Below, piece after piece: positions 9,083 to 25,891 of a stretch of 64,000 bases of DNA (the stretch's first letter is position 1; each line of letters opens with the position of its first letter). Both the position numbers and the translations under genes were made by a program. Origin of the DNA: Vicinamibacterales bacterium (GTDB lineage: Bacteria > Acidobacteriota > Vicinamibacteria > Vicinamibacterales > CAVVIG01). The notes below the pieces were generated by a model, which saw only the letters and a list, made by a program, of their open reading frames with translations, had not been told where the DNA came from and did not search any database. The DNA is taken from positions 3,432 through 67,431 of the forward strand of contig DATLRO010000068.1 in NCBI GenBank assembly GCA_035534615.1. The letters are read 5' to 3'.

Positions 9083-9105
9083 CGGGCGCGGCCCGCGACC
9101 TCGCC

Positions 9106-10443
<1,338 letters not shown>

Positions 10444-10463
10444 CGGAACGGAGCACGCGACAC

Positions 10464-11309
<846 letters not shown>

Positions 11310-11385
11310 GGCAGATCCTCCCTGATCGTCCCCTGCACTCCGCCTTCCCTCGCGTCCGGCCGGCTCGTGGGCGGCGGCGGTCCGC

Positions 11386-14217
11386 CTATTCTTCCAGCGC
11401 CAGCCTGCCGAAGAGCGGCTGTCCCGTGCGGGCGGCGTAGAAGCCGAAGCAGGTGATGCCGACGGCGAGCAGCAGGGCGATATTGCCCGACAGCGCCCAC
11501 CAGGCTCCGGGGGAGCGCGACAACGGCACCGAGGAGAGCAGGTTGTCGAAGAAGAGCGCCACGGTCACCGTGAGCAGACCGAAGCGGAACACGGCGACCG
11601 TGATCAGCAGGATCACCACCACGCCGACGAGGGCGACGGGCCACCCGTTGCTGATGTAGGCGCCGCTGTTGGAGGCCACCGTCACGATTGCCACGACGAG
11701 GGCAATGGCCAGCCAGGCGCGCCGCACCAGGAGCCGCAGGATGACGAAGAAGAGCGCCAGCAGCAGCGCGCTCTCCAGCGCGCTGTAGGCGACCTGCACC
11801 GCAGCGAGCGGCAGGGCGGCGGAGTGGGCCAGCAGATTCACCTGGTCGCCCAGGGGCGGGGTTCCCGCTTTCGTACCGCTCAGCGCCGGCGCGAGTCCCC
11901 GGGCCACTTCCGTCAACAGGAGCACGACGCCCAGGGCGGCGCCGGCGAGGATGTCGTGGCCGACCCGCGGATCGCGCAGGCGACCCGACATGAGGCGGCT
12001 CCAGCCCAGCAGGCCGTCCGGCCAGTAGCGGCGGGCGTAGGGCTCGATGGCGACGTACATCACCCAGACCTGGGCCACCTGCAGCAGGGCGATGCCGACG
12101 GCGACCAGGAGATGCTGCAGTTCGACGTACGGCGACGGCGTGTGGTGGGCGGCGAACAGCCAGCCGACCGTGATGCCGCCAAACAGCGCGAGGGTCAGTC
12201 GTGTGGCGGCGCGCCAGTCGGCACGGCGGGCGCGCACGTGCCGGTACGCAAGCAGCGCCGCGCCGAAGAGCGACAGGTTCCAGACCATCAGGTTGAAGAG
12301 ACCCGAGAGAAACTGCGCCGCGGACTGCCGGGCCGGCTCCGGCGGTTTCATCCACGGCCCGATGACGGAAAAGGCGGTCGGGCGGCCGCGGTAGGCGGCG
12401 GCTTCCACGCGCACCGTCACGCCGGGCCGATCGCCGAGCGGCCCTTCCCAGGCCTGGCGCACGTCGGCGAACGCCGGCGGCGTCCATTCGGGCGCCACCG
12501 GATGGAAGGCCGCCAGGTCCAGGCCGGCCGCGGTGAACAGCGGCTTCCACTGCGGGGCCGGCGCCGGCCCCGTGTCGGGCTCGAACGCGGGTGGCACGGC
12601 CTGGAACTCGACCAGGCGGCCCCGCGTGTCCGTGACGACGGTCTGCATGCCGGACGTGGTGGCCGGGGGATCGGTCAGTGAAATGTTCGACGTCGGCCCA
12701 CTGGGCGTCATCTGCTGCGGGCTGGTCCGGTACCAGAAGAGGAGGGCCGGCGGCTCGTCGCCGCGCAGGAGGTTCCACCATCCGGTCTGCCCGCTCGTGG
12801 TCCGAACCCAGGCCAGATTGGCCGACGGAATCTGGAAGTTGGACGCCGCGTCGGCCGGCGTCCCGTGGTAGCCGAACGACGCGGTCATCTGCTGAATCCG
12901 GTCGATCAGCACCGCAGGCGGCTTGTCGAGCGGCACGAGCGAGGGAAGCGACGCGCGCGGCCCGAGGACCGCGAAGGCCGCCAGCACGGCCAGCGAGGCG
13001 GCCGTCATCGCCAGCGCGCGGCCGAGCGGCATGGCCGGGCTCTCGCCGGCGGCGATGAGCAGCTCGGGCGACGGCGTCTCGCCGGCGGCGAGCGCCGCGG
13101 CGAGCGGATCGGCGCCCGGCATCGCGGCGGCGACGGCGAGCGCCGATGCCGGCCGCCGCGGCGGATCCTGTTCGAGGCACCGGAGGATGACGCGCTCGAT
13201 GGCCGGGTCCAGATCGGGGACGACCGCGCTCGGCACCGGGCGGCTGCCGCTCTCGTGCAGGGCGACGAGCTCGTGCAGCGATTTGGCCTCGTGCACGCGC
13301 CGGCCCGTGAAGATCTCGAACAGCACGAGCCCGAGGGCGTAGAGGTCGCTGGCGACCGATGCCGGCTCGCGCCTCAGCTGCTCCGGCGCCATGTACTGCG
13401 GCGTGCCGGCAAGCCCCTCCTCGCGTTCGCCGTCCATGGCCGCGAGGCCGAAGTCGGTGAGCCGCACGTTGCCGCGGCCGTCGATCATCACATTGGCCGG
13501 CTTCAGATCGCGGTGGAGCACGCCGCGCTCGTGCGCCGCGGCGAGGCCTGCGCACAGCTGCCGGGCCAGCTCGACGGCCTTATCCTGCGGCACCCGTCCG
13601 ATCCGGCGGAGCAGCGACGCGAGATCCTCGCCGTCGACGTACTCCATCGTAATGAACGGCCGGCCGTCGGCCTCGCCGAGGTCGTAGAGCCGGCAGACGT
13701 TCTTGTGCGACACCTGGCGGGCCACGCGCAGTTCCCCGTGGAACTGCGCCAGCCGCGCGGCGTCGTGTGCCACCTCTTCGGGGAGGAATTTCAGGGCGAC
13801 CGGCTGCCCCAGCGTCAGATCGTCGGCGCGGTAGACCTCGCCCATGCCGCCCCTGCCGAGCAGCGCGACCAGGCGGTAGCGTCCCGCCAGAATCGCGCCC
13901 GACTCGAAGCGGACGGTCGGCGGCCGGCGGTCGCCGGTGGACGCCGGCGTGACGCCCGGCGCGACGGTCCGGGTGGCGGCCGGGTCGTCGAGGCCGGGAG
14001 CGGACCCGGCCGCGGCCGGCGCGGGATCGACCGCGGCGCCGCACGATGGGCAGAACCGCGCGGCGGCCGGCCGGGCGGTGCCGCACGCGGGGCAACAGGG
14101 CACGGCGAGATTGTAGCGGAGATGTCCGGCGCCGCGCCCGCGCCGGAGAGCTCGGCCCTGCCGCCCCGTGCCGTCCGAAGGCGGGCACCGGCGGACGCGA
14201 CGCGTCCTCTTGCCCAC
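11386..14217 (-). CDS. Ser/Thr protein kinase with N-terminal zinc ribbon and large polytopic C-terminal membrane domain
   Basis: CPACG..CPSCG ribbon, GRGGMGEVY, HRDLKPANVM, DFGLA, GTPQYMAPE, then one TM segment, a ~300-aa segment and about 8 hydrophobic helices. The exact start is uncertain (GTG at 14217 or downstream). Confidence 0.85.
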   Translation of the reverse strand: MGKRTRRVRRCPPSDGTGRQGRALRRGRGAGHLRYNLAVPCCPACGTARPAAARFCPSCGAAVDPAPAAAGSAPGLDDPAATRTVAPGVTPASTGDRRPPTVRFESGAILAGRYRLVALLGRGGMGEVYRADDLTLGQPVALKFLPEEVAHDAARLAQFHGELRVARQVSHKNVCRLYDLGEADGRPFITMEYVDGEDLASLLRRIGRVPQDKAVELARQLCAGLAAAHERGVLHRDLKPANVMIDGRGNVRLTDFGLAAMDGEREEGLAGTPQYMAPEQLRREPASVASDLYALGLVLFEIFTGRRVHEAKSLHELVALHESGSRPVPSAVVPDLDPAIERVILRCLEQDPPRRPASALAVAAAMPGADPLAAALAAGETPSPELLIAAGESPAMPLGRALAMTAASLAVLAAFAVLGPRASLPSLVPLDKPPAVLIDRIQQMTASFGYHGTPADAASNFQIPSANLAWVRTTSGQTGWWNLLRGDEPPALLFWYRTSPQQMTPSGPTSNISLTDPPATTSGMQTVVTDTRGRLVEFQAVPPAFEPDTGPAPAPQWKPLFTAAGLDLAAFHPVAPEWTPPAFADVRQAWEGPLGDRPGVTVRVEAAAYRGRPTAFSVIGPWMKPPEPARQSAAQFLSGLFNLMVWNLSLFGAALLAYRHVRARRADWRAATRLTLALFGGITVGWLFAAHHTPSPYVELQHLLVAVGIALLQVAQVWVMYVAIEPYARRYWPDGLLGWSRLMSGRLRDPRVGHDILAGAALGVVLLLTEVARGLAPALSGTKAGTPPLGDQVNLLAHSAALPLAAVQVAYSALESALLLALFFVILRLLVRRAWLAIALVVAIVTVASNSGAYISNGWPVALVGVVVILLITVAVFRFGLLTVTVALFFDNLLSSVPLSRSPGAWWALSGNIALLLAVGITCFGFYAARTGQPLFGRLALEE

Positions 14218-14281
14218 GCGGATCCGGACCGATGGCCCGGGGCGAGCTGGACCGCCGGCCCGCCCGGGATGAATCGCCCGG

Positions 14282-14311
14282 TGGACTGGCTTCGGGAGTC
14301 ACTGCTATGAT
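14282..14311 (+). promoter_or_regulatory. candidate sigma70-type promoter upstream of the TPR/TRASH/BMC gene string
   Basis: TGGACT, 18 nt, TATGAT, about 95 nt upstream of the 14407 start. Motif match by eye only. Confidence 0.25.
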
Positions 14312-14406
14312 CGGGGCTTTCAGCGGGTGACAGCCCGGGTGCGCCGGTGCGTTCGCCGGGGCGCGGCGGGTCTCGAGACCTGAATCCGTCCGCGGCGAGC
14401 ATCTTT

Positions 14407-15069
14407 ATGAAGTCCGAATCGATTGTTTTCGGCCTTGCCGGCGTCTGTTTCGGCCTGATCGTCGGCTGGGTGATCGCGAACCAGCAGGTCCCGGGACGCC
14501 AGCCGGCCATCGCGGCCGCCAGCGCGTCGGCGTCGCAGCCGGCGCCGACCATGCCGGCGCAGGGGTCCGGCACGAGTGATCAGAGCACGAGCGCCAGCGG
14601 CGACCAGCCGGTCCCGCTCGACGCGAGCCGCGTGCAGGCGCTGACGGCCCAGGCGGCGCAGCACCCGAACGACGCCGGCCCGCGCATTCAGCTCGGCAAC
14701 ATGTACTTCGACGCCGAACAGTACCAGACCGCGATCAACTGGTACCAGCAGGCGCTCAAGCTGGCCCCGCGCGACGTCGACGTCAGCACCGACCTCGGCG
14801 TGTGCTTCTACTACACGAACCAGCCCGATCTCGCCCTGAAGCAGTTCAATTACTCCCTGTCGATCGATCCCCGGCACCTGAAGACGCTGTTGAACATCGG
14901 CGTCGTCCGCGCGTTCGGCAAGCAGGATCTGGAGGGCGCGGCCAGGGCGTGGCAGAAGCTGGTCGATATCGCGCCGAACAGTCCGGAGGGCCAGGCGGCG
15001 AAGAAGGCGCTGGAGAGCATGCGCCAGGCCCATCCTGGCCTCGGCACCGGCGGGGCGTCCGGCCCCTGA
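14407..15069 (+). CDS. TPR-repeat protein with N-terminal membrane anchor
   Basis: MKSESIVFGLAGVCFGLIVGWVIA TM segment, then TPR-like repeats (LGNMYFDAEQYQTAINWYQQALKLAP..). The ATG at 14407 is preferred over the 14347 track start. Confidence 0.7.
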   Translation: MKSESIVFGLAGVCFGLIVGWVIANQQVPGRQPAIAAASASASQPAPTMPAQGSGTSDQSTSASGDQPVPLDASRVQALTAQAAQHPNDAGPRIQLGNMYFDAEQYQTAINWYQQALKLAPRDVDVSTDLGVCFYYTNQPDLALKQFNYSLSIDPRHLKTLLNIGVVRAFGKQDLEGAARAWQKLVDIAPNSPEGQAAKKALESMRQAHPGLGTGGASGP

Positions 15070-15075
15070 GCCCCG

Positions 15076-15336
15076 ATGGTCCGGCTGCTGCTCCTGCTGC
15101 TGTTCCTGGTCTTCCTCGGGCGGGCCGTGTGGCGGTTCCTCCAGGGGGTCGTCGAGGGAGCGACGCGGCAGGGCGGGCGCCCGGGCACGCCGTCGCGCGG
15201 CGTCCAGATGGTCCGGGATCCGGTGTGCGGCACGTTCGTCGTGCCGGCCCGGGCGTACGCACTCGGCGAGGGCGATCGGCAGGTCTTCTTCTGTTCGGAA
15301 CGGTGCCGCGAGCAGTATCGCGCGGGAGCGCGGTGA
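15076..15336 (+). CDS. small membrane-anchored TRASH/YHS-like metal-binding domain protein
   Basis: Leu-rich TM segment, then DPVCGTFV..FFCSERCREQY, a Cys pattern typical of TRASH/YHS domains. Confidence 0.6.
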   Translation: MVRLLLLLLFLVFLGRAVWRFLQGVVEGATRQGGRPGTPSRGVQMVRDPVCGTFVVPARAYALGEGDRQVFFCSERCREQYRAGAR

Positions 15337-15354
15337 GCGGGTTGGGCAGGTCCG

Positions 15355-16221
15355 ATGGCTGAGCGGTCCGAAGCGCGCCTGCGCGCCGACATCGTCGAGA
15401 TCGGGCGGCGTCTCCACGAGCGGGGGTACGTCGCCTCGAACGACGGCAACATCAGCGCCCGGCTGGATGGCGCGCGCCTGCTGACGACCCCGAGAGGCGT
15501 GTCGAAGCGCGACATGACCCCCGACATGATGGTGGTCACGGATCTCGACGGGCGCAAGCTGGCCGGCGAGCGGACGGCCTCGTCGGAACTGCTGATGCAC
15601 CTCGAGGTCTACCGGAACCGGCCCGAGGTGGAGGCGGTCGTGCACGCGCATCCGCCCGCAGCCACGGGGTTCGCGGTGGCCGGCATCCCGCTGGACCGGG
15701 CGGTGCTCGCGGAAATCGTCACGACGCTCGGCAGCATTCCGATTGCGGCCTACGGCACGCCGTCGACGCAGGAACTGGCCGACGCGGTCCGCCAGTACAT
15801 CCGGGCGCACGACGGGCTGCTGCTGGCCAATCACGGCGCATTGACCGTCGGCGGCGATCTGTTCACCGCGTACTACAACATGGAGCGGGTCGAGCACTTC
15901 GCGCGCATCAGTCTGGTGGCGCGGCTGCTCGGGCGCGAGTATCTGCTGTCGCGCGAGGAAGTCGAGCGGCTGCAGGGCCTGCGCGGTGCGTACGGCGTGG
16001 CGGCTCCGGCGCCGATCTGCACGGACGGCAGCCAGGCGCCGGCCGCGGGCGAGGTCGCCAGCTGCCAGGTGATTCAGGCGCCGCCGGGGGGCGGCCTCCG
16101 GCTCGTGCCCGACGTCCCGGGGACGGCGGCCGGCGCGCCGCCGAGCGACGACACCGAAATTCGGTTAACATACCGCGAGCTGACGGCGCTCATCGAGGAC
16201 GCGGTCAGGAACCTGACATAA
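15355..16221 (+). CDS. class II (FucA/RhaD/AraD-family) aldolase with ~70-aa C-terminal extension
   Basis: [37 protein letters not shown] (metal His ligands). After about 215 aa comes a Pro/Gly/Ala linker and a terminal amphipathic helix, [19 protein letters not shown]. Confidence 0.9.
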
Positions 16222-16288
16222 TCCGCCTGCGCGTCGCGGGTGGCGGCCGGCGGCCGGCGTCAGCGCCGGCCATGGCCTGGAGGAGAGT

Positions 16289-16579
16289 ATGGGCGAGGCG
16301 CTCGGGATGATCGAGACGAAGGGACTTGTCGCGATGATCGAGGCGGCCGACGCCATGGTCAAGGCCGCGAAGGTCACGCTGGTGGGCTGGGAGAAGATCG
16401 GCGCCGGCTACGTCACGGCGCTCGTGCGCGGTGACGTCGCCGCCGTGAAGGCGGCGACCGACGCCGGGGCGGCCGCCGCCCGCCGCGTCGGCGAGCTCGT
16501 GTCGGTCCACGTCATTCCGCGCCCGCACGCGAGTCTCGAGGACACCCTGCCGATCGGCAGGTCGGGCGCCAAGAGCTAG
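16289..16579 (+). CDS. BMC-H shell protein (PF00936-type hexamer, PduA/EutM/CcmK-like)
   Basis: [34 protein letters not shown] pore loop, [28 protein letters not shown] before the ATG. Confidence 0.93.
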
Positions 16580-16603
16580 ACACGGGTTCCGATCGGCTCC
16601 CTC

Positions 16604-16873
16604 ATGATTCTGGCCAAAGTCGTCGGCACCGTGGTCGCGACCCGCAAAGATCCCCGCCTGGTCAGCCAGAAGCTGCTGGTCGCCCGACCGCTGGATCCGC
16701 GCGGCAAGCCGGAAGGCCACTACCTGGTCGCGGTCGACACCGTCGACGCCGGCTTCGGCGACATGGTGCTGATCGTCAACGGCAGCTCGGCGCGGATGGC
16801 GGCCGGCCTCAAGGACTGCCCGGTCGACGCCGCCATCGTCGGCGTCGTCGACACCGTCGAGCTCGACGAATAG
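16604..16873 (+). CDS. BMC-P vertex protein 1 (EutN/CcmL family, PF03319-type)
   Basis: MILAKVVGTVVATRKDPRLVSQKLLVARPLD..AVDTVDAG.GDMVLIV.GS.AR..VDAAIVGVVD. Confidence 0.9.
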   Translation: MILAKVVGTVVATRKDPRLVSQKLLVARPLDPRGKPEGHYLVAVDTVDAGFGDMVLIVNGSSARMAAGLKDCPVDAAIVGVVDTVELDE

Positions 16874-16886
16874 GGAAACGCCCGGC

Positions 16887-17165
16887 ATGCAGCTCGCGCG
16901 CGTCATCGGCGACGTGGTCACCACCAGGAAGGATCCGGCGCTGATCGGCCTGACCCTGCTGATCGTGCAGCCGCTCACGCCCGATCACCAGCCGATCGGC
17001 CGCGCGGTGATCGCCGCGGACACGGTCGGCGCCGGCGTGGGCGAAGAGGTGTTCTTCGTCCGGGGCAAAGAAGCCAGTTTCCCGTTCTTTCCCGCCGAGG
17101 TGCCCGTCGACGCGGGGATCGTCGGCATCATCGATTACTGGACCGTCGACGCCCCGCGTCCCTAG
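16887..17165 (+). CDS. BMC-P vertex protein 2 (EutN/CcmL family)
   Basis: MQLARVIGDVVTTRKDPALIGLTLLIVQPL..AADTVGAGVGEEVFFV.G..VDAGIVGIID. Confidence 0.9.
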   Translation: MQLARVIGDVVTTRKDPALIGLTLLIVQPLTPDHQPIGRAVIAADTVGAGVGEEVFFVRGKEASFPFFPAEVPVDAGIVGIIDYWTVDAPRP

Positions 17166-17177
17166 CCGGCCGCCGTC

Positions 17178-17474
17178 ATGCTGCTCGCCCGAGTCGTCGG
17201 CACCGTGGTCTCCACCCAGAAGCACCGGAAGTTCACCGGCGCCAAGCTGCTGCTCGTTCAGCCGCTGACGCTGGAGGAGACGCCCAGCGGCACGCCCGTG
17301 CTGGCGGTCGACGGGGTGGGCGCGGGCGTGCACGAGAAGGTGCTGATCGTCCTGGAAGGGCGGGCCGCCAGCGACGCCATCAGCCAGCGGGGCGCGCCGG
17401 TCGACGCCGCCATCGTCGGGATCGTGGACCACGTCGATCTGGGGACCGGCGCGGCTGCGGAGGCCGGCCGATGA
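17178..17474 (+). CDS. BMC-P vertex protein 3 (EutN/CcmL family)
   Basis: MLLARVVGTVVSTQKHRKFTGAKLLLVQPL..AVDGVGAGVHEKVLIV.EG..VDAAIVGIVD. Confidence 0.9.
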   Translation: MLLARVVGTVVSTQKHRKFTGAKLLLVQPLTLEETPSGTPVLAVDGVGAGVHEKVLIVLEGRAASDAISQRGAPVDAAIVGIVDHVDLGTGAAAEAGR

Positions 17475-17710
17475 CCGGCATGAGCGAGGAGGCGCTGCGC
17501 GCGCTCGTCCGCGACGTCGTGGCACGCGGCGCGGCGCAGGCCGGGGGCGCCGGCGGCTCGCTGGACACGACGGTCACGACCGTGGCGGCGGTGCTGGTGC
17601 ACGCCAGCCATCAGCGGTTCACGGCCCTGCCGCGCCCCGGCGACGCCTGTCTGATCGAGCCGGCCGTGCCGTGCACCCACTGCGGGTACTGCCAGTCGTA
17701 CGGCCACTGA
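17471..17710 (+). CDS. 79-aa Cys-rich protein with N-terminal amphipathic helix (putative encapsulated metal or Fe-S protein)
   Basis: The ATG overlaps the stop of BMC-P3 (ATGA). N-terminus EEALRALVRDVVARG, then a Gly/Ala linker. C-terminus C-x9-C-x2-C-x2-C (ACLIEPAVPCTHCGYCQSYGH). I recognise no family. Confidence 0.6.
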   Translation: MTGMSEEALRALVRDVVARGAAQAGGAGGSLDTTVTTVAAVLVHASHQRFTALPRPGDACLIEPAVPCTHCGYCQSYGH

Positions 17711-17725
17711 GCGACGCAAACGGTC

Positions 17726-18676
17726 ATGCCCAAACCAGCCCTGCTCGTCACGCGGCGGATTCCGGCGTCGGTGCTCGCCCGTCTCGAGCCGGTCTGCGAC
17801 ATCGATCTCTACACGGGCGACGCGGCCATCCCCCGCGGCGAGCTGCTCGAGCGCGTCCGCGGCAAGCAGGCGCTGATGTGCCTGCTGACCGATCGTATCG
17901 ACCGCGAGCTGCTCGAGGCGGGGCGCGACCTGCGGATCGTCGCGAACATCGCCGTCGGCTACAACAACGTCGACGTGGCCTCCGCGGCCGGGCGCGGCAT
18001 CATCGTCACCAACACGCCGGACGTGCTGACCGAGTCGGTGGCCGACTTCACCTGGGCGCTCATCCTCGCGCTGACCCGGCGCGTCTCGGAAGGCGAACGG
18101 GTGGTCCGCAGCGGCACGTGGAAGGGCTGGGCCCTCGACTTCATGCTGGGCACGGACGTCCGGGGCAAGCAGCTCGGGCTGATCGGCATGGGGCGGATCG
18201 CCCGGGCCGTCGCAGCGCGGGCGCCGGCGTTCGGCATGCGCGTGGCGTACGCCGACGAGCAGGCGGTCAGCGTGCCGGGTGCCGAGGCGATGTCGCTCGA
18301 TCGGCTGCTGACGACCTCGGACGTCGTGTCGCTGCACGTGCCGCTGACCGACGGCACCCGTCATCTGATCGACCGGCGGGCGCTGACCAGGATGAAGCGG
18401 TCCGCCTACCTGATCAACACGGCGCGCGGGCCGGTCGTCGACGAAGAGGCGCTCGCGTGGGCGCTCGGCCAGCATCTGATCGCCGGCGCCGCGCTGGACG
18501 TGTACGAGAACGAGCCGGCCATCCAGCCCGCCCTGATGACGATGGAACACGTGCTGCTGGTGCCGCACCTCGGCAGTGCCACGACCGAGACGCGGACGGC
18601 CATGGCGGATCTCGCGGCCAGCAACGTGCTGGCCGTTCTGGCGGGCAAGCCGGCGCTGACCGCCGTGCCGGCGTGA
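17726..18676 (+). CDS. D-isomer-specific 2-hydroxyacid dehydrogenase (glyoxylate/hydroxypyruvate reductase-like)
   Basis: VGYNNVDV, NTPDVLTESVADF, Rossmann GLIGMGRIARAVA, ..NTARG..VDE.AL, catalytic region LDVYENEP..PHLGSAT. Confidence 0.92.
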   Translation: MPKPALLVTRRIPASVLARLEPVCDIDLYTGDAAIPRGELLERVRGKQALMCLLTDRIDRELLEAGRDLRIVANIAVGYNNVDVASAAGRGIIVTNTPDVLTESVADFTWALILALTRRVSEGERVVRSGTWKGWALDFMLGTDVRGKQLGLIGMGRIARAVAARAPAFGMRVAYADEQAVSVPGAEAMSLDRLLTTSDVVSLHVPLTDGTRHLIDRRALTRMKRSAYLINTARGPVVDEEALAWALGQHLIAGAALDVYENEPAIQPALMTMEHVLLVPHLGSATTETRTAMADLAASNVLAVLAGKPALTAVPA

Positions 18677-18680
18677 CCCC

Positions 18681-19481
18681 ATGCCGGTGACTGCCGCGAG
18701 CGTCCCGGCCCGCCGCGGGCGCGGACCGCAGGCCCGGCGGCCGGCGGTGCCGCCACTGCCCTCGCCGGCCGCGGTCGACGCCGTGCTGCACACCCTCGCG
18801 AGGGCCATCACCGGCCTCGAACTGCCGGCGGTCGAGAAGATCGCCACCGACCAGGCGGAGGATCCGTTCCAGGTCCTCATCGCGACGCTGCTGTCGGCGC
18901 GGACGCAGGACGCGACGACGCTGGCGGCCTCGCGGCGGCTGTTCGGGGTGGCCCGCACGCCGGCCGCGATGGCGCGGCTGACGGTCCGCCGGATCGAGCG
19001 GCTGATCTATCCCGTCAGCTTCTACCGGCACAAGGCCCGCTTCGTCCGGGCGACCTGCCGGCTGCTGATGGCGCGGTACGGCGGGCGCGTGCCCGGGACG
19101 ATGGACGAACTGCTGCAGCTGCCGGGCGTGGGACGCAAGACGGCGAATCTGGTCCTGATCCTCGCCCACCGCAGCCAGGACAACATCTGCGTCGACACGC
19201 ACGTTCACCGGCTGGCCAACCGGCTGGGCTGGGTCCGGACGCGCGTGCCCGACGAGACGGAGCAGGCGTTGTACCGGGCGGTCGATCGCCGCTGGTGGCC
19301 GTACGTGAATCTCTATTTCGTCACGTGGGGGCAGAACGTCTGCCGGCCGATTGCGCCGCGATGCGGCGCCTGCCCGGTTCAGGAGGCGTGCCCGCGCATC
19401 GGGGTCACGCGTACGCGGCGCACGGTCGGGCCGGGAACGCCCGGCCGCGCGTCGCACTCAGCAAAGGGAGCCGAACGATGA
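18681..19481 (+). CDS. nth: endonuclease III family DNA glycosylase
   Basis: LSARTQD, HhH LPGVGRKTANLVL, DTHVHR, Fe-S loop CRPIAPRCGACPVQEAC. The N-terminal ~45 aa are Arg/Pro-rich, so the true start may be downstream. Confidence 0.85.
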   Translation: MPVTAASVPARRGRGPQARRPAVPPLPSPAAVDAVLHTLARAITGLELPAVEKIATDQAEDPFQVLIATLLSARTQDATTLAASRRLFGVARTPAAMARLTVRRIERLIYPVSFYRHKARFVRATCRLLMARYGGRVPGTMDELLQLPGVGRKTANLVLILAHRSQDNICVDTHVHRLANRLGWVRTRVPDETEQALYRAVDRRWWPYVNLYFVTWGQNVCRPIAPRCGACPVQEACPRIGVTRTRRTVGPGTPGRASHSAKGAER

Positions 19482-20047
19482 AGAACGTGTCTCGCGTTGT
19501 CTGGACCGCTGTGGCGGTCGTGTCCATGCTGGCCGTCAGCGGTCTCAAGGCGTCCGCCCAGGATCAGATTCCGACCGAGAAGGGGCCGATCCTGGTGGTG
19601 GAGACGGTCCGGGGGACCTTCGAGATCAAGACCTATCCCAAAGAGGCCCCGAAAACCGTCGCGCACATCGTCGCGCTCACCAAGCGCGGCTTCTACAACG
19701 GCCTGCGCTTTCACCGCGTCGTGCCGGGCTTCGTCATCCAGGTCGGCGACCCGCAGAGCCGCGACCTGTCGAAGCGGGCGCTCTGGGGCACCGGCGGCAG
19801 CGGCCATCCGATCGGCGTCGCCGAGTTCAGTCCGAAGCTGACGCACATCACGGGAGCCGTCGCCATGGCGTACGCCGGCACGCCGCAGTCGGCCGACAGC
19901 CAGTTCTACATCACGCTGGCCCCGCAGCACAGCCTCGACGGCAAGTACGTGGTGTTCGGCCAGGTGATCAAGGGCGACGACGTGCCGGCGAAGATCAAGG
20001 TGGGCGACCTGATCAAGAAGATGTACGTGAAACCCGGGACGGAGTAG
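19478..20047 (+). CDS. cyclophilin-type peptidyl-prolyl cis-trans isomerase, secreted
   Basis: AGGGAG RBS, signal peptide, FYNGLRFHRVVPGFVIQVGDP, SQFYIT. Confidence 0.9.
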   Translation: MKNVSRVVWTAVAVVSMLAVSGLKASAQDQIPTEKGPILVVETVRGTFEIKTYPKEAPKTVAHIVALTKRGFYNGLRFHRVVPGFVIQVGDPQSRDLSKRALWGTGGSGHPIGVAEFSPKLTHITGAVAMAYAGTPQSADSQFYITLAPQHSLDGKYVVFGQVIKGDDVPAKIKVGDLIKKMYVKPGTE

Positions 20048-20990
20048 TCGGCACGAAGGACGCCAGCTCGGGATACGCCGCGACGAACGCGGGCGGATAG
20101 TCGCCCGCGGTCGGCAGGCGGAGCCGGTGTTTGAGCATCAGGGCGTTGGCCGGCGCTTTGGCCGCGAAGTGGTTGTTCAGGTAGACGTACAGCTTCTTCA
20201 CCAGGCGACCGGCCGCGTCGATCGTCCGCGCGAACTCGTCCACCTCGGCCGGCGCGTACAGGTAGTTGTACCGGTCCTCCGCGTGCTCGTGCCGCCACCA
20301 GGCCGCCGCGTTCCGCCCGTGCAGCCGCAGGTAGTACGCCGTCGGCAGGTTCGGCAGCTCGTTCTGGCGGATCGAGAAGCGGAATTTCGGCTCGTCGATC
20401 TGGACCCACGCGGCGCCGAAGCCGTTGAGCAGCGCCAGCGTGTCGCCGAGGCGGTCGCTCCAGCTCCGATGGCGCAGCTCGACCGCCATCGGATAGCCGG
20501 CGAACGCCCGGAGCAGGCCGGCGAGGTGGTCGCGCGAGTCGGCGGCGTCCTTGAAGCTCGGCGGGAACTGCGCGAGCAGCATGCCGAGCCGGCCGGCGGC
20601 GGCGATCGGCTCGATCCCGGTCCGGAAGGCGTCGAGATCGGCCTGGGTGACGCGCGCCAGTTCGTCCAGGACGCCGGCCGGCACGTCGCCCGCCGGCACC
20701 CCGGGCAGCGCCGCCTGCCTGAACATCTCCGGGTGCGTGAACTTCCGGTACAGCTTGAGGGAGAACCGGAAGCCGGGCGGCGTGCGGGCCACCCACGAGC
20801 GGGCGATGGCGGCGCGCGGCTGTCCGTAGAACGTCGTGTTGACCTCGACGGTGTCGAAGCGCTCGGCGTAATAGGCGAGCTCGTCGAACGGTTTCGGGCG
20901 CGCGGCCGTGGCCGGGTAGAACAGGCCGGTCCACGTCCCCCGGCCGGTCGGATAGTTCCAGCCGGACGTCCCGATGTACAGATCACCCAT
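20013..20990 (-). CDS. DUF72 family protein
   Basis: YIGTSGWNYP, FDTVEVNTTFYG, RHRSW, typical DUF72 length. Converges on and overlaps the PPIase 3' end by 35 nt. Confidence 0.88.
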   Translation of the reverse strand: MGDLYIGTSGWNYPTGRGTWTGLFYPATAARPKPFDELAYYAERFDTVEVNTTFYGQPRAAIARSWVARTPPGFRFSLKLYRKFTHPEMFRQAALPGVPAGDVPAGVLDELARVTQADLDAFRTGIEPIAAAGRLGMLLAQFPPSFKDAADSRDHLAGLLRAFAGYPMAVELRHRSWSDRLGDTLALLNGFGAAWVQIDEPKFRFSIRQNELPNLPTAYYLRLHGRNAAAWWRHEHAEDRYNYLYAPAEVDEFARTIDAAGRLVKKLYVYLNNHFAAKAPANALMLKHRLRLPTAGDYPPAFVAAYPELASFVPTTPSRVSRTSS

Positions 20991-20996
20991 GACGGC

Positions 20997-21332
20997 TCAT
21001 CCGAGCGCGCGATACCGATCCTGGTCGAAGCCGAAGACGACCGTCGTCCCCTTGATGAGGATCGGCCGTTTGATCAGGTTCGGCTGCTGCAGCATGAGGT
21101 CGATCGCTTCCTTCTTCGTCGTGGGCAGCGGCCGGGTCTTGAACACCGGGCTCCGGCGGCTGACGAAGTCCAGGATGTGGTCCGCGTCGACGTGGCGCTC
21201 GAGAAACGCCCGATCCGGCGGCTGGCGGTTGATGTCGCGTTCTTCGACGTCGAGTCCGATCTGCTCCAGAAACCTTCTGGCGTGGCGGCAGGTCGTTCAC
21301 GTCGGCTTCCAGTAGAAGAGTGCGCGCGTCAT
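20997..21332 (-). CDS. ArsC/Spx/YffB-family thioredoxin-fold protein with in-frame UGA at the catalytic Cys position (candidate selenoprotein)
   Basis: Hand translation gives MTRALFYWKPT-[TGA]-TTCRHARRFLEQIGLDVEERDI...LMLQQPNLIKRPILIKGTTVVFGFDQDRYRALG*. It aligns with the YffB pattern LYGIKNCDTCKKARRWLE...IKRPLL..GF. The TGA is at 21297-21299. An SD-like AAGGGGGG lies upstream of the ATG. Absent from the ORF track because the TGA splits the frame. Confidence 0.7.
21266..21280 (-). promoter_or_regulatory. SECIS-like hairpin downstream of the in-frame UGA
   Basis: mRNA: UGA, 16 nt, then CCAGAA-GGU-UUCUGG (6-bp stem, apical GGU). Confidence 0.4.
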
Positions 21333-21450
21333 GGGCCCCCCTTGATGCCCATTGTAAAGGGGCGGGGGCGATCGGGACGCGGAAAACCCGGGCCGGGAGC
21401 CGGCCCGCGCGTGCGGGTACAATTGACCCGGTGGCGCAGCCGGAGCGATC

Positions 21451-22089
21451 TTGACGATCAACGAGATTTTCCATTCGATTCAGGGGGAATCGACCCACGC
21501 GGGGCGGCCCTGCGTCTTCGTCCGCCTGACGGCGTGCGACCTCCGCTGTACCTGGTGCGACACGCCGTACGCCTTCCACGAAGGCCGCCGGATGAGCGTG
21601 GACGAGGTCATGGCGGCGGTGGAGGCGTACGCCTGCCCGCTCGTCGAGATCACCGGCGGCGAGCCGCTGCTGCAGGAAGACGTCTACCCGCTGATGGACC
21701 GCCTGCTGGCGGCCGGCCGGACCGTACTGCTCGAGACCGGCGGTCACCGGAGCACCGCCCGCGTCCCGCCCGCCGTCGTCCGGGTCCTCGACGTGAAGTG
21801 TCCGGGCAGCGGCGAGGCGGCCCGCATGGACTGGCGCAATCTCGACGCGCTGGCGCCGCACGACGAGGTCAAGTTCGTGATCCGGGACCGCGACGACTAT
21901 CTGTTCGCCCGTGACGTCATCCGCCGGCATGCGCTCGTCGGGCGCTGCGCGGCCGTCCTGCTGTCGCCGGTGCACGGCGTGCTGGCGCCGCGCGAGCTGT
22001 CCGCCTGGGTGCTGGAGGACGCGCTGCCCGTGCGCGTGCAGCTCCAGGTGCACAAGTACATCTGGGGCGCGGACGTGAGAGGAGTGTGA
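21451..22089 (+). CDS. queE: 7-carboxy-7-deazaguanine synthase (radical SAM)
   Basis: [22 protein letters not shown] cluster motif. TTG start. Confidence 0.9.
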
Positions 22090-22096
22090 GCGCCCG

Positions 22097-22786
22097 GTGA
22101 ACGCGGTGGTGCTGCTCAGCGGCGGGCTCGACTCCTACACGGCCGCGGCCACGGCGAGGGCCGACGGCTTCACGCTGTACGCGCTGACGGTGCAGTACGG
22201 ACAGCGGCACGCGCAGGAACTGGACGCAGCCCGGCGGGTGGCGCGCCACCTCGACGTCGCGCGCCACCTCGAGCTGCGCGTGGACCTGTCGCGCATCGGC
22301 GGATCCGCGCTCACGGCCGATCTGCCCGTGCCGCGCGATCGTCCGATCGACGCGGCCGACATCCCGATCACCTACGTGCCGGCCCGCAACACCGTGTTCC
22401 TCTCGCTGGCGCTGGCGTGGGCGGAGGTGATCCCGGCGGCCGACATCGTCATCGGCGTCAACGCCCTCGACTACTCGGGCTATCCCGACTGCCGGCCCGA
22501 GTACCTGGAGGCGTTCGAACGCCTGGCCGCGCTGGCGACCAGAGCGGGCGTCGAGGGCACCCGATTCCGCATCCACGCACCGCTGCTGCGGCTGACCAAG
22601 GCGGGGATCATCCAGCGCGGCGTCGCGCTCGGGCTCGACTACGGCCTGACGCACAGCTGCTACGACCCGGAGCCGGACGGGCGGCCGTGCGGGCGGTGCG
22701 ACAGCTGCCGGCTGCGGGCGAAGGGATTCGAGGAGGCGGGCGTCACGGATCCGCTGATCGTGGCGTCCGGTCGTTCGACACGGTGA
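22097..22786 (+). CDS. queC: 7-cyano-7-deazaguanine synthase
   Basis: [12 protein letters not shown]-loop, C-terminal zinc Cys cluster C..C..C..C ([12 protein letters not shown]). Confidence 0.93.
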
Positions 22787-22838
22787 GCGGGCGCGTCGGC
22801 GCACGGTCGACGCCGGAGGAGGCCTCGTCCTGAGTCCG

Positions 22839-24683
22839 GTGCAGAACATCTTCACGCGACAGTCGCTCAGGCGTCAGGTCTTCATGGTCAGCGCGGCGCT
22901 CCTCCTGCCGCTCCTCGGGGCGATCGCCTGGTCGGCCACCCGGACCTATCGCGAACGCGAAGCCGACCTGCGCGAGCAGGCGTCGGTCGTCGTGGCCACC
23001 GCGGCGGCGTATCTGAACCAGCGGTTCGACAACCTGGACTCGCTCGCGGTCGTGCTGGGGCGCTATCCCGCCATCCGCACGCTGAACGCCGAGGCATCCC
23101 ACCGGCTGCTCGGGGCGCTGCTGTCGCGATATCCCTTCCTGCTCGACATCGTCGTCACCGACCCGACCGGACGCCTCCGCGGCTCGGGCCTCGCTCCGCC
23201 GCCCGGCGGGGCCCCTCCGTTCGAGGGGGCGTGCCTGCAGCAGGTCCTGCGCACGGACCGATCGTGCGCCAGCGATTACATGGTCGATGCCTCGACGCGC
23301 CGGCCCATCATCGTGCTGGCATATCCGATTCCGGGCGACGACGGGCGCCCGGTGGGCGTGCTGAACTTCGCGCTGAACCTGCTGTCGCTGCAGAACGCGT
23401 TCGCGGCGATCCCGCTCCCCAGCGGGTCGGTGATCACGCTCACCGATCGCACCAGCCGCGTGCTGGTGCGAAGCCGGGATGCGCTCGAGTACGTCGGCGT
23501 CCGGATCGACCCGCACCACGCGCTGGCGCCCGGCCGTGTCCCTCCCATCAGGGTCATGCGGGGGCTGGATGGCACCGAGGAAATCTTCGGCAACGCGGTG
23601 ATCGCGCGCGGTCCCTGGCTCCTGAGCGTCGGGATCCCGAAGTCGCTGGCCGTGGCGCGCGTCTGGCCGCTCTGGCGCCGTAATTTCCGCATCGCGGTCG
23701 GCGCCGTGCTCGCCAGCCTGATCTTCGCGCTGTTCCTCGCCCGCGGGCTCAGCCGGCCGCTCTCGGCCCTCACGACCGCGGCCCAGCGGATCGCCGGCGG
23801 CGACCTCAGCCCCCCCGCGCCGATGGTCGCGCCGAACCGCGAGCTCGCCCAGCTTCGCGACGCGTTCGGCACGATGGCGACGAACCTGGCCGAGGCCCGG
23901 GCCGCGCTCGACGCGCAGATTGCCCAGGAACGCCGGGCCCGCGAGGAGGTCGAGCTGCTGCAGGACCAGGTCGTCCGGCAGGAGCGGCTGGCGGCGGTCG
24001 GGCTGCTCGTGTCGGGCGTGGCCCACGAGCTGAACAATCCGCTGCAGGCGATCCTCGGTGCGACCGAGCTCATGCAGCAGCAGGCGCGGGTGGCCTTGCC
24101 GCCGCCGGTGCTGGACGAAATCGCCTTCATCCAGAAGGAGGGGGCGCGGGCGCGCGACATCATCCGCAACCTGTCGCGGTTTGCCCGCCAGGAGACCAGC
24201 CCCACCGCGGACGTCCGGCTGGCCGACGTCGTGGCAGCCGTGCTGCAGCTGCGCGAGCGCGATCTCACCCGGGCGGCGATCCGCTACCAGGTGGACATCC
24301 GATCCGATCGGCCGGTCGTCGCCGGATTCACCGAGCTGCAGCAGGTCGTGCTCAACTTCGTCGTCAACGCCGAACAGGCGATCGCCGAGGCCGGCCGACC
24401 GGACGGCCTGGTCGCCATCGACATCCACGACGTCGACCACCGCGTCCGACTGGAGGTCGCCGACAACGGGAACGGGGTTCCCGAGACGCACGAGCCGAAG
24501 CTGTTTCAGCCGTTCTTCACGACCAAGCCGGCCGGCTACGGCACCGGCCTGGGCCTGTCGGTGAGCTACGGCATCATCGATTCCTGTGGCGGAGCGATCG
24601 GGTACGCCCGGAACGAGTGGGGCGGCGCCACCTTCTACTTCGAACTGCCGGCCCGATCGGCTGGCACGGAGGCCGCCTCGTGA
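22839..24683 (+). CDS. sensor histidine kinase (periplasmic Cache-like domain, HAMP, HisKA, HATPase)
   Basis: TM segment, ~250-aa extracytoplasmic domain, second TM, HAMP, H-box VAHELNNPLQAI, DNGNGVP, GTGLGLS. Confidence 0.85.
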   Translation: MQNIFTRQSLRRQVFMVSAALLLPLLGAIAWSATRTYREREADLREQASVVVATAAAYLNQRFDNLDSLAVVLGRYPAIRTLNAEASHRLLGALLSRYPFLLDIVVTDPTGRLRGSGLAPPPGGAPPFEGACLQQVLRTDRSCASDYMVDASTRRPIIVLAYPIPGDDGRPVGVLNFALNLLSLQNAFAAIPLPSGSVITLTDRTSRVLVRSRDALEYVGVRIDPHHALAPGRVPPIRVMRGLDGTEEIFGNAVIARGPWLLSVGIPKSLAVARVWPLWRRNFRIAVGAVLASLIFALFLARGLSRPLSALTTAAQRIAGGDLSPPAPMVAPNRELAQLRDAFGTMATNLAEARAALDAQIAQERRAREEVELLQDQVVRQERLAAVGLLVSGVAHELNNPLQAILGATELMQQQARVALPPPVLDEIAFIQKEGARARDIIRNLSRFARQETSPTADVRLADVVAAVLQLRERDLTRAAIRYQVDIRSDRPVVAGFTELQQVVLNFVVNAEQAIAEAGRPDGLVAIDIHDVDHRVRLEVADNGNGVPETHEPKLFQPFFTTKPAGYGTGLGLSVSYGIIDSCGGAIGYARNEWGGATFYFELPARSAGTEAAS

Positions 24684-25891
24684 CCGAGCGTCTGTACTAT
24701 ACCGAGCCGTATCGGACCGAGTTCGACGCCGTCGTCCAGCGCGTCGAGCCGCACGACGCAGGACTGCTCGTCGTCCTGGATCGGACGGCGTTCTACCCGA
24801 CCTCGGGGGGACAGCCGTTCGACACGGGCCGTCTCGACGGCGTGCGGGTGATCGACGTCGTCGATCGCGATGATGGGGCCGTCGGCCACGTGATCGACGG
24901 GCGCCTGGCCGTCGGACAGGCCGTGCACGGCACCCTCGACTGGCCCCGCCGCTTCGATCACATGCAGCAGCACAGCGGCCAGCACGTGCTGTCGGCCGTC
25001 TTCGACCGCCTGCATCGCGCACGAACCATCAGCTTTCACCTCGGCAGCGCCGTGTCCACCATCGACCTGGAGCGCGAAGTCACGGCTGACGCGATCCGAT
25101 CGGCCGAAGACGAGGCGAACCGGGTCATCTGGCAGAACCTGCCGGTGGCGATCCGCTTCGCCTCGGCGGCGGAGGCGGCGGCCCTGCCGCTGCGCAAGGA
25201 ACCGACCCGGGACGGGACGCTGCGGCTGATCGCGATCGGCGACGTCGACCTCTCGGCCTGCGGCGGGACGCACGTGGCGCAGACCGGCGCCATCGGCTCG
25301 ATCATGATCCCGGCGTGGGAGCGGTTCAAGGGCGGGACGCGGATCGAGTTCGCCTGCGGCGGCCGCGCGCTCGACCTCTTCCGGTCCCTGCGCGACCAGA
25401 TGGCGGCGGCGATGCGGCTCCTGTCGGTCTCGGCGGCCGAGCTGCCCGAGGCGGTCGCCCGCCTGCAGACCGAGGCGCGGGACCTCCGGCGGGCCGGCAG
25501 GGGATTCCAGGAGGAACTGGCCGGACACCGCGCCGCGGCCCTCGTCGCGGCCGCGCCGGAGGTCGGAGGCTGCCGGCTTGTGGTCGATGCGCTCGAAGGC
25601 TGGGACGCGCCGGGGCTGAAGATGCTGGCGCAGGCGATTGCGGCGGCGCCGGGACAGGCGGCCGTGCTGCTGTCGCGCCCCGCGCCCGCGCTCGTCGTCA
25701 TCGCGCGCGCCGCCGGCGTCACGCTCGACGCGCGTCGCGTGCTCGAGGCGCTGACCGGGCGGTTCGGCGGGCGGGGCGGCGGGCGGCCCGACCTGGCCCA
25801 GGGCGGCGGCCTCGAGGGCTCGATCGACGAGATGCTGGCCGTCGCGCGCGCGGCGGCCGCGGCCGGCGCCACGGGTGCTGCCGGCGGTTAG
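24680..25891 (+). CDS. alanyl-tRNA editing protein (AlaX-L-like; AlaRS second additional domain)
   Basis: LYYTEPY, zinc motifs HMQQHSGQHVLS and CGGTHV. GTG start overlapping the kinase stop. Confidence 0.8.
   Translation: MTERLYYTEPYRTEFDAVVQRVEPHDAGLLVVLDRTAFYPTSGGQPFDTGRLDGVRVIDVVDRDDGAVGHVIDGRLAVGQAVHGTLDWPRRFDHMQQHSGQHVLSAVFDRLHRARTISFHLGSAVSTIDLEREVTADAIRSAEDEANRVIWQNLPVAIRFASAAEAAALPLRKEPTRDGTLRLIAIGDVDLSACGGTHVAQTGAIGSIMIPAWERFKGGTRIEFACGGRALDLFRSLRDQMAAAMRLLSVSAAELPEAVARLQTEARDLRRAGRGFQEELAGHRAAALVAAAPEVGGCRLVVDALEGWDAPGLKMLAQAIAAAPGQAAVLLSRPAPALVVIARAAGVTLDARRVLEALTGRFGGRGGGRPDLAQGGGLEGSIDEMLAVARAAAAAGATGAAGG

Follow-up and report, generated by a model that had tools for sequence, protein, structure and literature searches.

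A gene at 17471..17710 (+, stop codon included) in the 64,000-nucleotide stretch of Vicinamibacterales DNA that we analysed, here called the window, encodes the 79-aa small protein of the ACI microcompartment (BMC). The ORF is a real, strongly conserved gene, more than chance, and it occurs only inside ACI shell-gene clusters. The protein is a known unknown that was already catalogued in 2021, not a discovery. We tentatively read it as an encapsulation peptide (EP) tethering a four-cysteine (Cys4) knuckle in the ACI compartment, serving as an adaptor or assembly factor and not as an enzyme; this is the account we favour, although we hold it at a little short of even confidence.

Several observations establish that the ORF is a gene. 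The sequence-only reading of this DNA had the frame right, and 17471-17710 (+) encodes the same 79-aa protein that it gave. An identical protein is annotated as a gene on 8 public contigs, and the GC content at codon positions 1/2/3 (0.73/0.58/0.96) resembles that of the neighbouring genes. We found 203 homologues at E<=0.01 in a 90%-identity database and 270 clusters at E<=0.001 when 1.84 billion 50%-identity representatives were searched by profile. The cysteines are invariant among them, contrary to the outcome that the earlier reading had named as fatal to its proposal, an absence of homologues with conserved cysteine positions. Across the homologues, C60, C68, C71, C74, E63, P64 and G78 are 98-100% conserved, H70 is 94% conserved and H79 is 97% conserved.

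Members of this family are uniformly small, with a median length of 76 aa and a 5-95% range of 70-105 aa. All of them are built alike, from a helix at the N-terminus, a linker whose length varies and a near-invariant C-terminus. The best 150 of the 270 profile matches are all <=135 aa, and none of those 150 is fused to an enzyme. These 150 thus give no sign that the knuckle is homologous to the small domain found after the EP in the aldehyde dehydrogenases of ACI systems. Neither a Pfam nor an NCBIfam model matches the protein, and scans down to E=10 with the protein and 30 family members gave nothing meaningful. The earlier reading did not recognise the family, but exactly this protein is described in ACI loci by Sutter et al. 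2021 (PMC8217296, Supplementary Data 2). Our literature searches on ACI compartments and on the small protein returned nothing later than that catalogue.

The surrounding genes have the composition of an ACI main locus, which comprises a class II aldolase with a C-terminal EP, a BMC-H, a BMC-P triplet and a 2-hydroxyacid dehydrogenase (Sutter et al. 2021, PMC8217296). The class II aldolase lies at 15355..16221 (+; Pfam Aldolase_II, 5.8e-50) and carries an extension of ~100 aa, in which two cysteines are invariant, and a C-terminal EP (16156-16218) that is conserved in all related loci. An aldolase of this form is a defining ACI component (Sutter et al. 2021, PMC8217296). The shell genes occupy 16289..17474 (+) and consist of BMC-H (16289-16579; Pfam BMC, 2.8e-30) and three BMC-P genes (16604-16873, 16887-17165 and 17178-17474; EutN_CcmL, 4.6e-32, 9.8e-28 and 4e-28), the last of which we call BMC-P3. 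Downstream of the small gene, at 17726..18676 (+), is a D-2-hydroxyacid dehydrogenase with neither a terminal extension nor an EP (Pfam 2-Hacid_dh_C, 5.8e-57); its nearest NCBIfam model, glyoxylate reductase, scores below cutoff. A gene for a TRASH/YHS-like protein lies just upstream in the locus. A Pfam scan of ten long ORFs of the window found no aldehyde dehydrogenase among them, in agreement with the published location of this enzyme on a satellite locus in ACI systems (Sutter et al. 2021, PMC8217296).

Linkage of the small gene to shell genes, which the sequence-only reading had proposed, held at every locus that could be evaluated. BMC genes are present at 80/80 loci of GTDB species-representative genomes, wherever upstream DNA exists, and BMC-P3 lies directly upstream of the small gene in 64/66 evaluable loci of a metagenome set. 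The order aldolase-EP, BMC-H, three BMC-P genes and small gene is kept in related loci with flanking sequence. GTDB species representatives contain 292 loci, and the best 80 are nearly all labelled Acidobacteriota or Vicinamibacterales; the few loci with other labels have identical synteny and are probably mis-binned. Because the loci all belong to a single narrow lineage (mostly Vicinamibacterales) and the wider neighbourhood is syntenic too, the conserved gene order partly reflects inheritance and not selection. For the downstream endonuclease III, an Fe-S protein, we rejected a functional tie to the small protein, since other genes separate the two at several loci and the entire region is housekeeping DNA with conserved synteny. 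Farther along, 3.7 kb downstream, a radical-SAM gene at 21451-22089 adjoins a QueC-family gene; by its size and this adjacency it is probably QueE.

The start of the small gene is joined to the end of BMC-P3. As the earlier reading noted, the two genes overlap by ATGA, with the ATG at 17471-17473 and the BMC-P3 stop TGA at 17472-17474. The whole junction spans 17459..17474 (+): a GGAGG at 17459-17463 and a 7-nt spacer precede the ATG. This -4 overlap recurs in 60/83 related loci, and the small gene overlaps BMC-P3 in any manner in 67/83. Translational coupling of the small gene to BMC-P3 is thus conserved, which is new here. With a second in-frame ATG, at 17480, the protein would have the family-typical N-terminus M-x-E-E-x-L-R, and the start is for this reason uncertain by 3 codons.

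The N-terminus has the form of a BMC encapsulation peptide, that is, a 15-20-residue terminal amphipathic helix followed by a poorly conserved, flexible linker. The EP helix covers residues 5-25 (17483..17545, +), with its core at L9-V17 (17495-17521). AF2 predicts a helix at residues 6-25 with a pLDDT of 85-93, and the family consensus is xEExLRALVRDAVAR. Hydrophobic residues are spaced i, i+3, i+4, i+7, i+8 (L9, L12, V13, V16, V17), although the Eisenberg hydrophobic moment of the helix 16-mer was not significantly above that of shuffles. The motif of the core, L-x-A-L-[VI]-x-D-[AV]-V, recurs in the C-terminal EP of the aldolase of the same operon. Across all six frames of the window the motif occurs only in these two places, and a profile-profile comparison (hhalign) of the small-protein helix with the aldolase EP gave P=3.7e-4. 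When an HMM of the family's N-terminal helix was run against the six frames of the window, it found only the small protein itself and no further EP-bearing gene, but this HMM is too narrow to recover even the aldolase EP. The EP-like helix of the earlier reading (S5-G20) is therefore borne out by the AF2 helix and the aldolase-EP motif, and Sutter et al. 2021 also call an EP here. Together, these data support the view that the N-terminus behaves as an encapsulation peptide, with a putative role in targeting.

Behind the helix lies a low-complexity, flexible linker (residues 26-43; 17546..17599, +) of low pLDDT and variable length and sequence. The Gly/Ala stretch described earlier is present at residues 21-30, and pLDDT falls below 50 at linker residues 29-41. 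Linkers are 15-43 aa long in related loci and reach about 80 aa in database members; they are rich in Ala, Pro, Gly and Ser.

After the linker comes a pre-knuckle segment (17600..17647, +), H-A-S-H followed by xRFxxLPxxGDA. The HASH element of the sequence-only reading is present, at residues 44-47. S46 and H47 are >=90% conserved among close relatives, and HxSH is found in 215/270 members. This segment also separates an 'LP..SDG' subfamily from an 'LVN' subfamily. The Cys4 knuckle, a C-terminal module of ~20 residues, follows at 17648..17707 (+) and reads C60-LIEPAVP-C68-TH-C71-GY-C74-QSYG-H79-COOH. The corresponding family C-terminus, C-[LVI]-I-E-P-x-V-x-C-x-H-C-G-[YF]-C-x-S-x-G-H-COOH, is almost invariant. 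All four C are 100% conserved, as is the last G, and the other columns are nearly as constant (I 94%, E 99%, P 98%, V 96%, H70 94%, G 95%, Y/F 99%, S/T 98%, terminal H 97%). Exactly 5 residues follow the last Cys in 265/267 members. The four C-terminal cysteines reported earlier, C60, C68, C71 and C74, are thus present and invariant in the family, but the C-x9-C-x2-C-x2-C spacing given for them was wrong: the actual spacing is C-x7-C-x2-C-x2-C, with x7 in 267/270 members. That the four Cys are invariant and the C-terminal Gly-His obligatory is new here.

The same reading had called the cysteine motif ferredoxin-like, a likeness that our searches did not demonstrate. Neither Fer4 nor any other Pfam model matches, and the sole similarity in a structure database is to a zinc site. 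PDB sequence matches fall only on the structural-zinc lobe of MDR polyol dehydrogenases (IEPgVPCxxCxxC, E=8e-4 to 2), and the profile matches 5vm2, 1e3j, 7y9p and 3m6i all align over IEPxVxCxxCxxC. The similarity spans only 13-19 residues, with a best E of 8e-4, and the lobe's fourth Cys, at +8, has no counterpart in a protein that ends at +5. This weak local resemblance, suggested by the alignments, is likewise new here. In Foldseek searches, neither the full-length AF2 model nor one built from the last 42 residues alone matched any PDB entry (0 matches for each). Both models are of moderate confidence; pLDDT is 74-83 over the Cys4 region in AF2, and the 42-residue model is no better, at 65.6. 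CxxCG, here C68-x2-C71-G72, is a classic knuckle. A rubredoxin or zinc-ribbon fold was rejected because only this one CxxCG is present, the other two Cys do not form a CxxC pair, and neither Pfam nor Foldseek gave a match. A ferredoxin-type [4Fe-4S] domain was also rejected: there is no CxxxCP, only 5 residues follow the third Cys of CxxCxxC, and Fer4 is not found at E<=10 with 30 members.

In the account that we favour, the helix would take the small protein into the compartment lumen, where it would dock on the inner face of the shell or co-aggregate with the aldolase EP, and the linker would serve as a tether. The Cys4 module may fold round a single metal ion, most likely as a structural Zn(Cys)4 knuckle comparable to the C-x2-C-x2-C zinc lobe of polyol dehydrogenases. 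The invariant residues that are not ligands (E63, P64, G72, Y73, S76, G78 and H79-COOH) would then form a partner-binding surface. Every ACI system would possess this partner, which could be the aldolase, the shell or the aldehyde dehydrogenase of the satellite locus; the 2-hydroxyacid dehydrogenase encoded next door would not be its specific partner. Judging by the coupling to BMC-P3, the protein may be synthesized in step with a low-copy shell component.

A rival account makes the protein an encapsulated redox centre. Here the cysteines, possibly with H70 or H79, would bind Fe(Cys)4, [4Fe-4S] or [2Fe-2S] and make the protein a tethered electron carrier or redox sensor, loosely like PduS/PduT. 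A compact four-Cys loop can indeed hold [4Fe-4S], as the similarly spaced C-x6-C-x2-C-x5-C of endonuclease III does. The small protein has CxxCxxC and a fourth Cys within 15 residues, all invariant, with conserved His beside them (H70 94%, H79 97%). Sutter et al. 2021 (PMC8217296) note that PduS/PduT homologues are occasional in ACI genomes and that three His are conserved in another ACI protein. Against this stand the lack of a match to Fer4, rubredoxin or other Fe-S families even at E<=10 across 30 members, the absence of the ferredoxin-type CxxxCP, and a conserved locus that encodes no redox partner such as a flavoprotein or Fe-S enzyme; the only database similarity of the module is, again, to zinc. 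H77, which a Rieske-like CxxHG box would need, is only 49% conserved. We rejected a Rieske-type [2Fe-2S] site because of this and because C68-x-H70 and C74-x-x-H77-G are adjacent and not 15-17 residues apart; a mitoNEET-like Cys/His reading fails on spacing and on the same poorly conserved H77. We consider the redox account unlikely. To our knowledge, no tethered mini-metalloprotein redox component has been described for any microcompartment, and the version in which a targeting peptide tethers an iron or iron-sulfur mini-metalloprotein that is made in fixed ratio with a vertex protein, as an electron carrier or redox sensor, also seems rather improbable to us. In a related proposal, the protein acts in the lumen as a chaperone or buffer for metal, providing or storing the divalent ion that the encapsulated class II aldolase needs. 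Class II aldolases of the FucA type depend on Zn2+ or a comparable ion, and the aldolase is the enzyme of this locus that carries a conserved EP. Metal is a theme there, given the TRASH/YHS-like protein and the two invariant Cys of the aldolase extension. This case is purely circumstantial, however; Cys4 sites usually bind zinc too tightly for donation, and the near-100% conservation of residues that are not ligands suggests a fixed interface, not a transfer site. We judge it very unlikely.

Gene content bears on the remaining alternatives. The sequence-only reading had suggested a dedicated adaptor that carries the EP-less 2-hydroxyacid dehydrogenase into the compartment. The enzyme's lack of a terminal extension fits this idea, as does the position of its gene directly downstream in about 77/85 loci of the first set (median gap 27 nt), and clades that have the dehydrogenase differ in the pre-knuckle segment from those that lack it. 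However, although the dehydrogenase adjoins the small gene in most 'LP'-type loci, it is absent from most 'LVN'-type loci. In the 'LVN' subclade, endonuclease III is directly downstream in 30 loci and the dehydrogenase in 7, yet neither the EP nor any invariant residue of the knuckle has been lost; these genomes could carry a dehydrogenase gene at another place. This subclade, which retains the small gene without an adjacent dehydrogenase, is new here, and the adaptor idea is weakened because of it. The coupling, too, is to the upstream BMC-P3 gene and not to the dehydrogenase. Overall, we regard a dehydrogenase-specific adaptor as decidedly unlikely. The accompanying premise, one dehydrogenase with no partner for cofactor recycling, was off: the ACI aldehyde dehydrogenase sits on the satellite locus, and the 2-hydroxyacid dehydrogenase may thus itself be the NAD-recycling enzyme. 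It is scarcely credible that the ORF has no function of its own as a protein, whether as a spurious frame or as a ribosomally made peptide precursor that undergoes processing. The ORF is short, and its Cys-rich C-terminus behind a helical 'leader' is superficially like a peptide-natural-product precursor, but it is kept in >270 clusters in which linker length varies while the reading frame is maintained and the termini are invariant. GC3 is of the coding type, and the RiPP-precursor reading was ruled out because no maturase is nearby.

ACI compartments occur only in Acidobacteria, a phylum abundant in soil, and the small protein is one of their few ACI-specific components. Its tiny size and extreme conservation make it easy to work with in metal analysis or pull-downs, or as a targeting tag. 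Should the knuckle prove to be an interaction module, its partner would reveal the arrangement of vertex proteins or of cargo that has no EP; a redox-active knuckle would give metabolosome biology an element that handles electrons inside the compartment.

The closest known counterpart is the ACI ~80-aa EP protein catalogued by Sutter, Melnicki, Schulz, Woyke & Kerfeld (2021, Nat Commun 12:3809, Supplementary Data 2), which has the same size, locus, phylum, N-terminal EP and conserved C-terminal cysteines. Nothing essential differs, and each trait given in the catalogue was found in our protein: ~80 aa, a place in the ACI main locus, an N-terminal EP, C-terminal Cys and restriction to Acidobacteria. 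The catalogue gives three conserved Cys, whereas four are invariant in 267/270 sequences here. The same authors suggested that metal binding is important in this locus type (PMC8217296).

Other likenesses are more partial. The zinc lobe of MDR polyol/sorbitol-type dehydrogenases has the motif [IV]-E-P-x-V-x-C-x-x-C-x-[YF]-C in common with the small protein, and the match takes in a strand and, after it, the first three of the zinc-binding Cys. The lobe (C-x2-C-x2-C-x7-C) lies in an ADH_N, GroES-like domain and has a fourth Cys at +8; the small protein has neither and instead carries an invariant upstream Cys at -8, a mirror-image spacing. We therefore rejected membership in the lobe family, and the relation is one of resemblance. 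PduS/PduT Fe-S components are similarly BMC-associated and have cysteine-ligated metal centres, but PduT belongs to the shell and PduS is a flavo-Fe-S enzyme of ~450 aa, and neither has a sequence relationship to the small protein. CcmN is the beta-carboxysome protein whose EP links cargo to shell. CcmN-type adaptors are like our protein, if our reading is right, in being non-enzymatic, in having a terminal EP joined through a linker to a part that binds a partner, and in being encoded among shell genes. CcmN contains a beta-helix domain of ~130 aa and bears its EP at the C-terminus, whereas the small protein has a Cys4 module of 20-35 residues and an N-terminal EP, with no sequence similarity between the two.

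The small gene (17471-17710, + strand) encodes a 79-residue protein, MTGMSEEALRALVRDVVARGAAQAGGAGGSLDTTVTTVAAVLVHASHQRFTALPRPGDACLIEPAVPCTHCGYCQSYGH. Its ATG shares bases with the TGA of the preceding gene, BMC-P3 (ATGA, 17471-17474), as the sequence-only reading had noted, and GGAGG lies 7 nt 5' of this ATG. A second in-frame ATG at 17480 would give the N-terminus that is commonest in the family, which leaves a three-codon uncertainty in the start. GC content at codon positions 1, 2 and 3 (0.73, 0.58 and 0.96) agrees with that of the flanking genes. Reading the sequence again bore out the earlier description of the gene apart from its cysteine spacing, which is C-x7-C-x2-C-x2-C and not C-x9-C-x2-C-x2-C.

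A search of a 90%-identity protein database returned 203 homologues at E<=0.01 (69-88 aa among the 120 matches listed). Searched with a profile, 1.84 billion 50%-identity representatives gave a family of 270 clusters; the best 150 are 56-135 aa long and include no enzyme fusion. The spacing C-x7-C-x2-C-x2-C is present in 267 of the 270 family sequences, the last Cys stands exactly five residues from the C-terminus in 265 of those 267, and 258 of the 270 end in Gly-His. Within the last 20 alignment columns, the four cysteines are each 100% conserved, as is G78; [LVI] after the first Cys reaches 94%, I 94%, E 99%, P 98%, V 96%, H70 94%, G72 95%, Y/F 99%, S/T 98% and the terminal H 97%. The N-terminus is conserved too (xEExLRALVRDAVAR), and the middle segment varies freely in length and sequence with the reading frame preserved. 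No Pfam or NCBIfam model matched the protein, even at E=10 across 30 members. These data indicate that the ORF belongs to a real family, with the homologues of conserved cysteine positions that the sequence-only reading had proposed to look for.

This family is not new. Acidobacteria-type (ACI) microcompartment loci have been described as a type of 125 loci, exclusively in Acidobacteria, with a pfam00596 aldolase bearing a C-terminal encapsulation peptide (EP), a hydroxyacid dehydrogenase, a BMC-P triplet, one or more BMC-H and an aldehyde dehydrogenase encoded at a satellite locus (Sutter et al. 2021, PMC8217296). Our protein, earlier called unrecognised, is almost certainly one already in that catalogue, and our literature searches returned nothing on it later than that paper. 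The finding thus correctly re-identifies a protein that had already been catalogued. It would not surprise a specialist; the increments are modest, namely four cysteines versus three, the obligatory Gly-His end, conserved coupling, zinc-lobe similarity and independence from the dehydrogenase.

We examined linkage to microcompartment genes in two sets of loci. Scanning one genome per GTDB species yielded 292 loci, and nearly every one of the best 80 carries an Acidobacteriota or Vicinamibacterales label; wherever a locus includes upstream DNA, its genes run TPR, TRASH-like, aldolase, BMC-H, three BMC-P, small gene. Among 80 metagenome loci picked around a divergent subfamily, the 66 that could be evaluated have BMC-P3 immediately upstream of the small gene in 64 cases and BMC-H in two. 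Of 83 loci, 67 show some overlap between the small-gene start and the BMC-P3 stop, and in 60 it is exactly 4 nt. Because so many loci share the 4-nt overlap, the small gene's translational coupling to BMC-P3, the third pentamer gene, is conserved and no accident of the window. The wider neighbourhood is also syntenic (cdaA-ybbR-glmM-pdxJ upstream; endonuclease III, PPIase, DUF72, queE and queC downstream) within a narrow lineage, and therefore gene order alone overstates functional linkage. At one long-read MAG locus (L019, 5704-7263), the small gene comes straight after BMC-H and is itself followed by the dehydrogenase, with no aldolase or BMC-P at the site; this locus is either reduced or rearranged. 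Six contigs with Vicinamibacterales-type ACI synteny (L006, L053, L070, L071, L076 and L077) are labelled Bifidobacteriaceae, Betaproteobacteria, Acidimicrobiia or Solibacteraceae and are most likely mis-binned or mislabelled.

In the window, the small gene belongs to a tight series on the + strand: a TPR protein (14347-15069), an 86-aa membrane-anchored TRASH/YHS-like protein (15076-15336), a class II aldolase whose long C-terminal extension ends in an EP (15355-16221), BMC-H (16289-16579), three BMC-P genes (16604-16873, 16887-17165 and 17178-17474), the small gene, a D-2-hydroxyacid dehydrogenase without any extension (17726-18676) and endonuclease III (18681-19481). A sigma-70-like promoter match (14282-14311, +; TG-extended, TGGACT, 18 nt, TATGAT) precedes the TPR gene by 36 nt, and no terminator-like site was found inside the series or between 14.5 and 20.5 kb. 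Together these fit, and weakly indicate, a single long transcript that starts with TPR and runs on across the BMC genes. Ten long ORFs in other parts of the window included no aldehyde dehydrogenase.

Several neighbours have features of their own. The TRASH/YHS-like ORF, which nearly all related loci have directly 5' of the aldolase, combines an N-terminal hydrophobic helix with a conserved RDPVCG...(21 residues)...FCSxxC (C-x21-C-x3-C); it matches the NCBIfam 'PP0621 family' below cutoff, a homologue weakly matches Pfam YHS, and it may be among the ACI proteins that Sutter et al. mention as 'unknown' and metal-related. Within the last ~90 residues of the aldolase (15955-16221, +), a conserved extension between catalytic domain and EP has two invariant cysteines (APAP[IL]C ... 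CQ[VT]VxAP) and an RL[VI]PD motif. It could bind metal, form a disulfide or serve for docking, and might conceivably partner the small protein. The window (~7300-25900) and related loci L081-L088 have the BMC operon set within a block of housekeeping genes, the syntenic ones named above; the block's order is conserved across the lineage, and its radical-SAM gene is probably queE. In the window, a Ser/Thr kinase gene (11386-14217, minus strand) sits between pdxJ and the TPR gene and is absent from L084, L086 and L087.

The N-terminal helix was earlier proposed to be EP-like, and the analysis supports this. AF2, run with a 30-sequence alignment, places a helix at residues 6-25 (block pLDDT 85-93), with residues 29-41 below 50 and the C-terminal region at 74-83. 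Across all six frames of the 64-kb window there are exactly two copies of the motif L-x-A-L-[VI]-x-D-[AV]-V, one in the small protein (17495-17521, +) and one in the aldolase EP (16180-16206, +), and 200 residue shuffles gave none; since both sequences served to define the pattern, the count is an illustration of their likeness and not independent evidence. When the two helix families were aligned profile to profile, P was 3.7e-4 over 16 columns. The Eisenberg hydrophobic moment of the helix 16-mer was not above shuffles, so the EP assignment is based instead on position and linker, on conservation, on likeness to the EP of the aldolase and on published work.

We infer, tentatively, that the small protein is an EP-tethered Cys4 knuckle, probably binding Zn, which would reside in the ACI compartment, be made in step with BMC-P3 and function as a small adaptor or assembly factor. 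An adaptor specific for the EP-less dehydrogenase, as previously suggested, would fit the roughly 77 of 85 first-set loci where that gene adjoins the small gene. In one subfamily ('LVN'), the segment before the first knuckle Cys reads ...LYVxLVNxxDA-C in place of ...RYxLPxSDGP-C, and the next gene is endonuclease III in 30 loci versus the dehydrogenase in 7. Because the EP and knuckle invariants all remain intact there, the core function is independent of the adjacent dehydrogenase gene, and we consider a dedicated adaptor decidedly improbable. The 'LVN' loci (dehydrogenase-less examples include L047, L055, L087-L089, L133-L135, L146, L149 and L151) appear to be an ACI variant without the dehydrogenase. 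The correlated segment change could stem from loss of a secondary contact or from clades simply diverging, and it carries no statistic because one or a few evolutionary events probably account for it. The small protein's constant companion is the shell, joined at nearly every locus by the aldolase; a metal chaperone serving that enzyme would suit this, and we regard it as very unlikely. A spurious ORF or a peptide precursor is scarcely credible given the family's conservation. Apart from the cysteine spacing, the sequence-only reading was sound in what it observed; its interpretation is partly supported and gave way on novelty and the dehydrogenase adaptor.

The metal must also be considered. 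His47, His70 and His77 are each substituted in some members, and the terminal His is occasionally Tyr or Phe, which argues that the four cysteines would be the obligatory ligands. The near-total conservation of non-ligand residues and the fixed distance to the free C-terminus point to a module presenting a specific interface. A redox-active Fe or Fe-S centre is unlikely overall, with Fe(Cys)4 or a cluster possible from the motif; endonuclease III holds a [4Fe-4S] cluster on a similarly compact C-x6-C-x2-C-x5-C loop. We favour a single tetrahedral Cys4 site, most simply structural zinc, because of the CxxCG knuckle (C68-x2-C71-G72, a classic metal knuckle) and the similarity to a known zinc lobe. 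Family profiles matched solved structures of medium-chain polyol dehydrogenases only (5vm2, E=8e-4; 1e3j, 0.026; 7y9p, 0.23; 3m6i, 2.2), every alignment covering [IV]EPxVxCxxCxxC, which in their structural-zinc lobe comprises the strand and the first three Cys. This resemblance spans 13-19 residues. The fourth Cys of the lobe has no counterpart because the small protein ends there; its own invariant Cys lies eight residues upstream instead, a mirror image of the zinc-lobe spacing.
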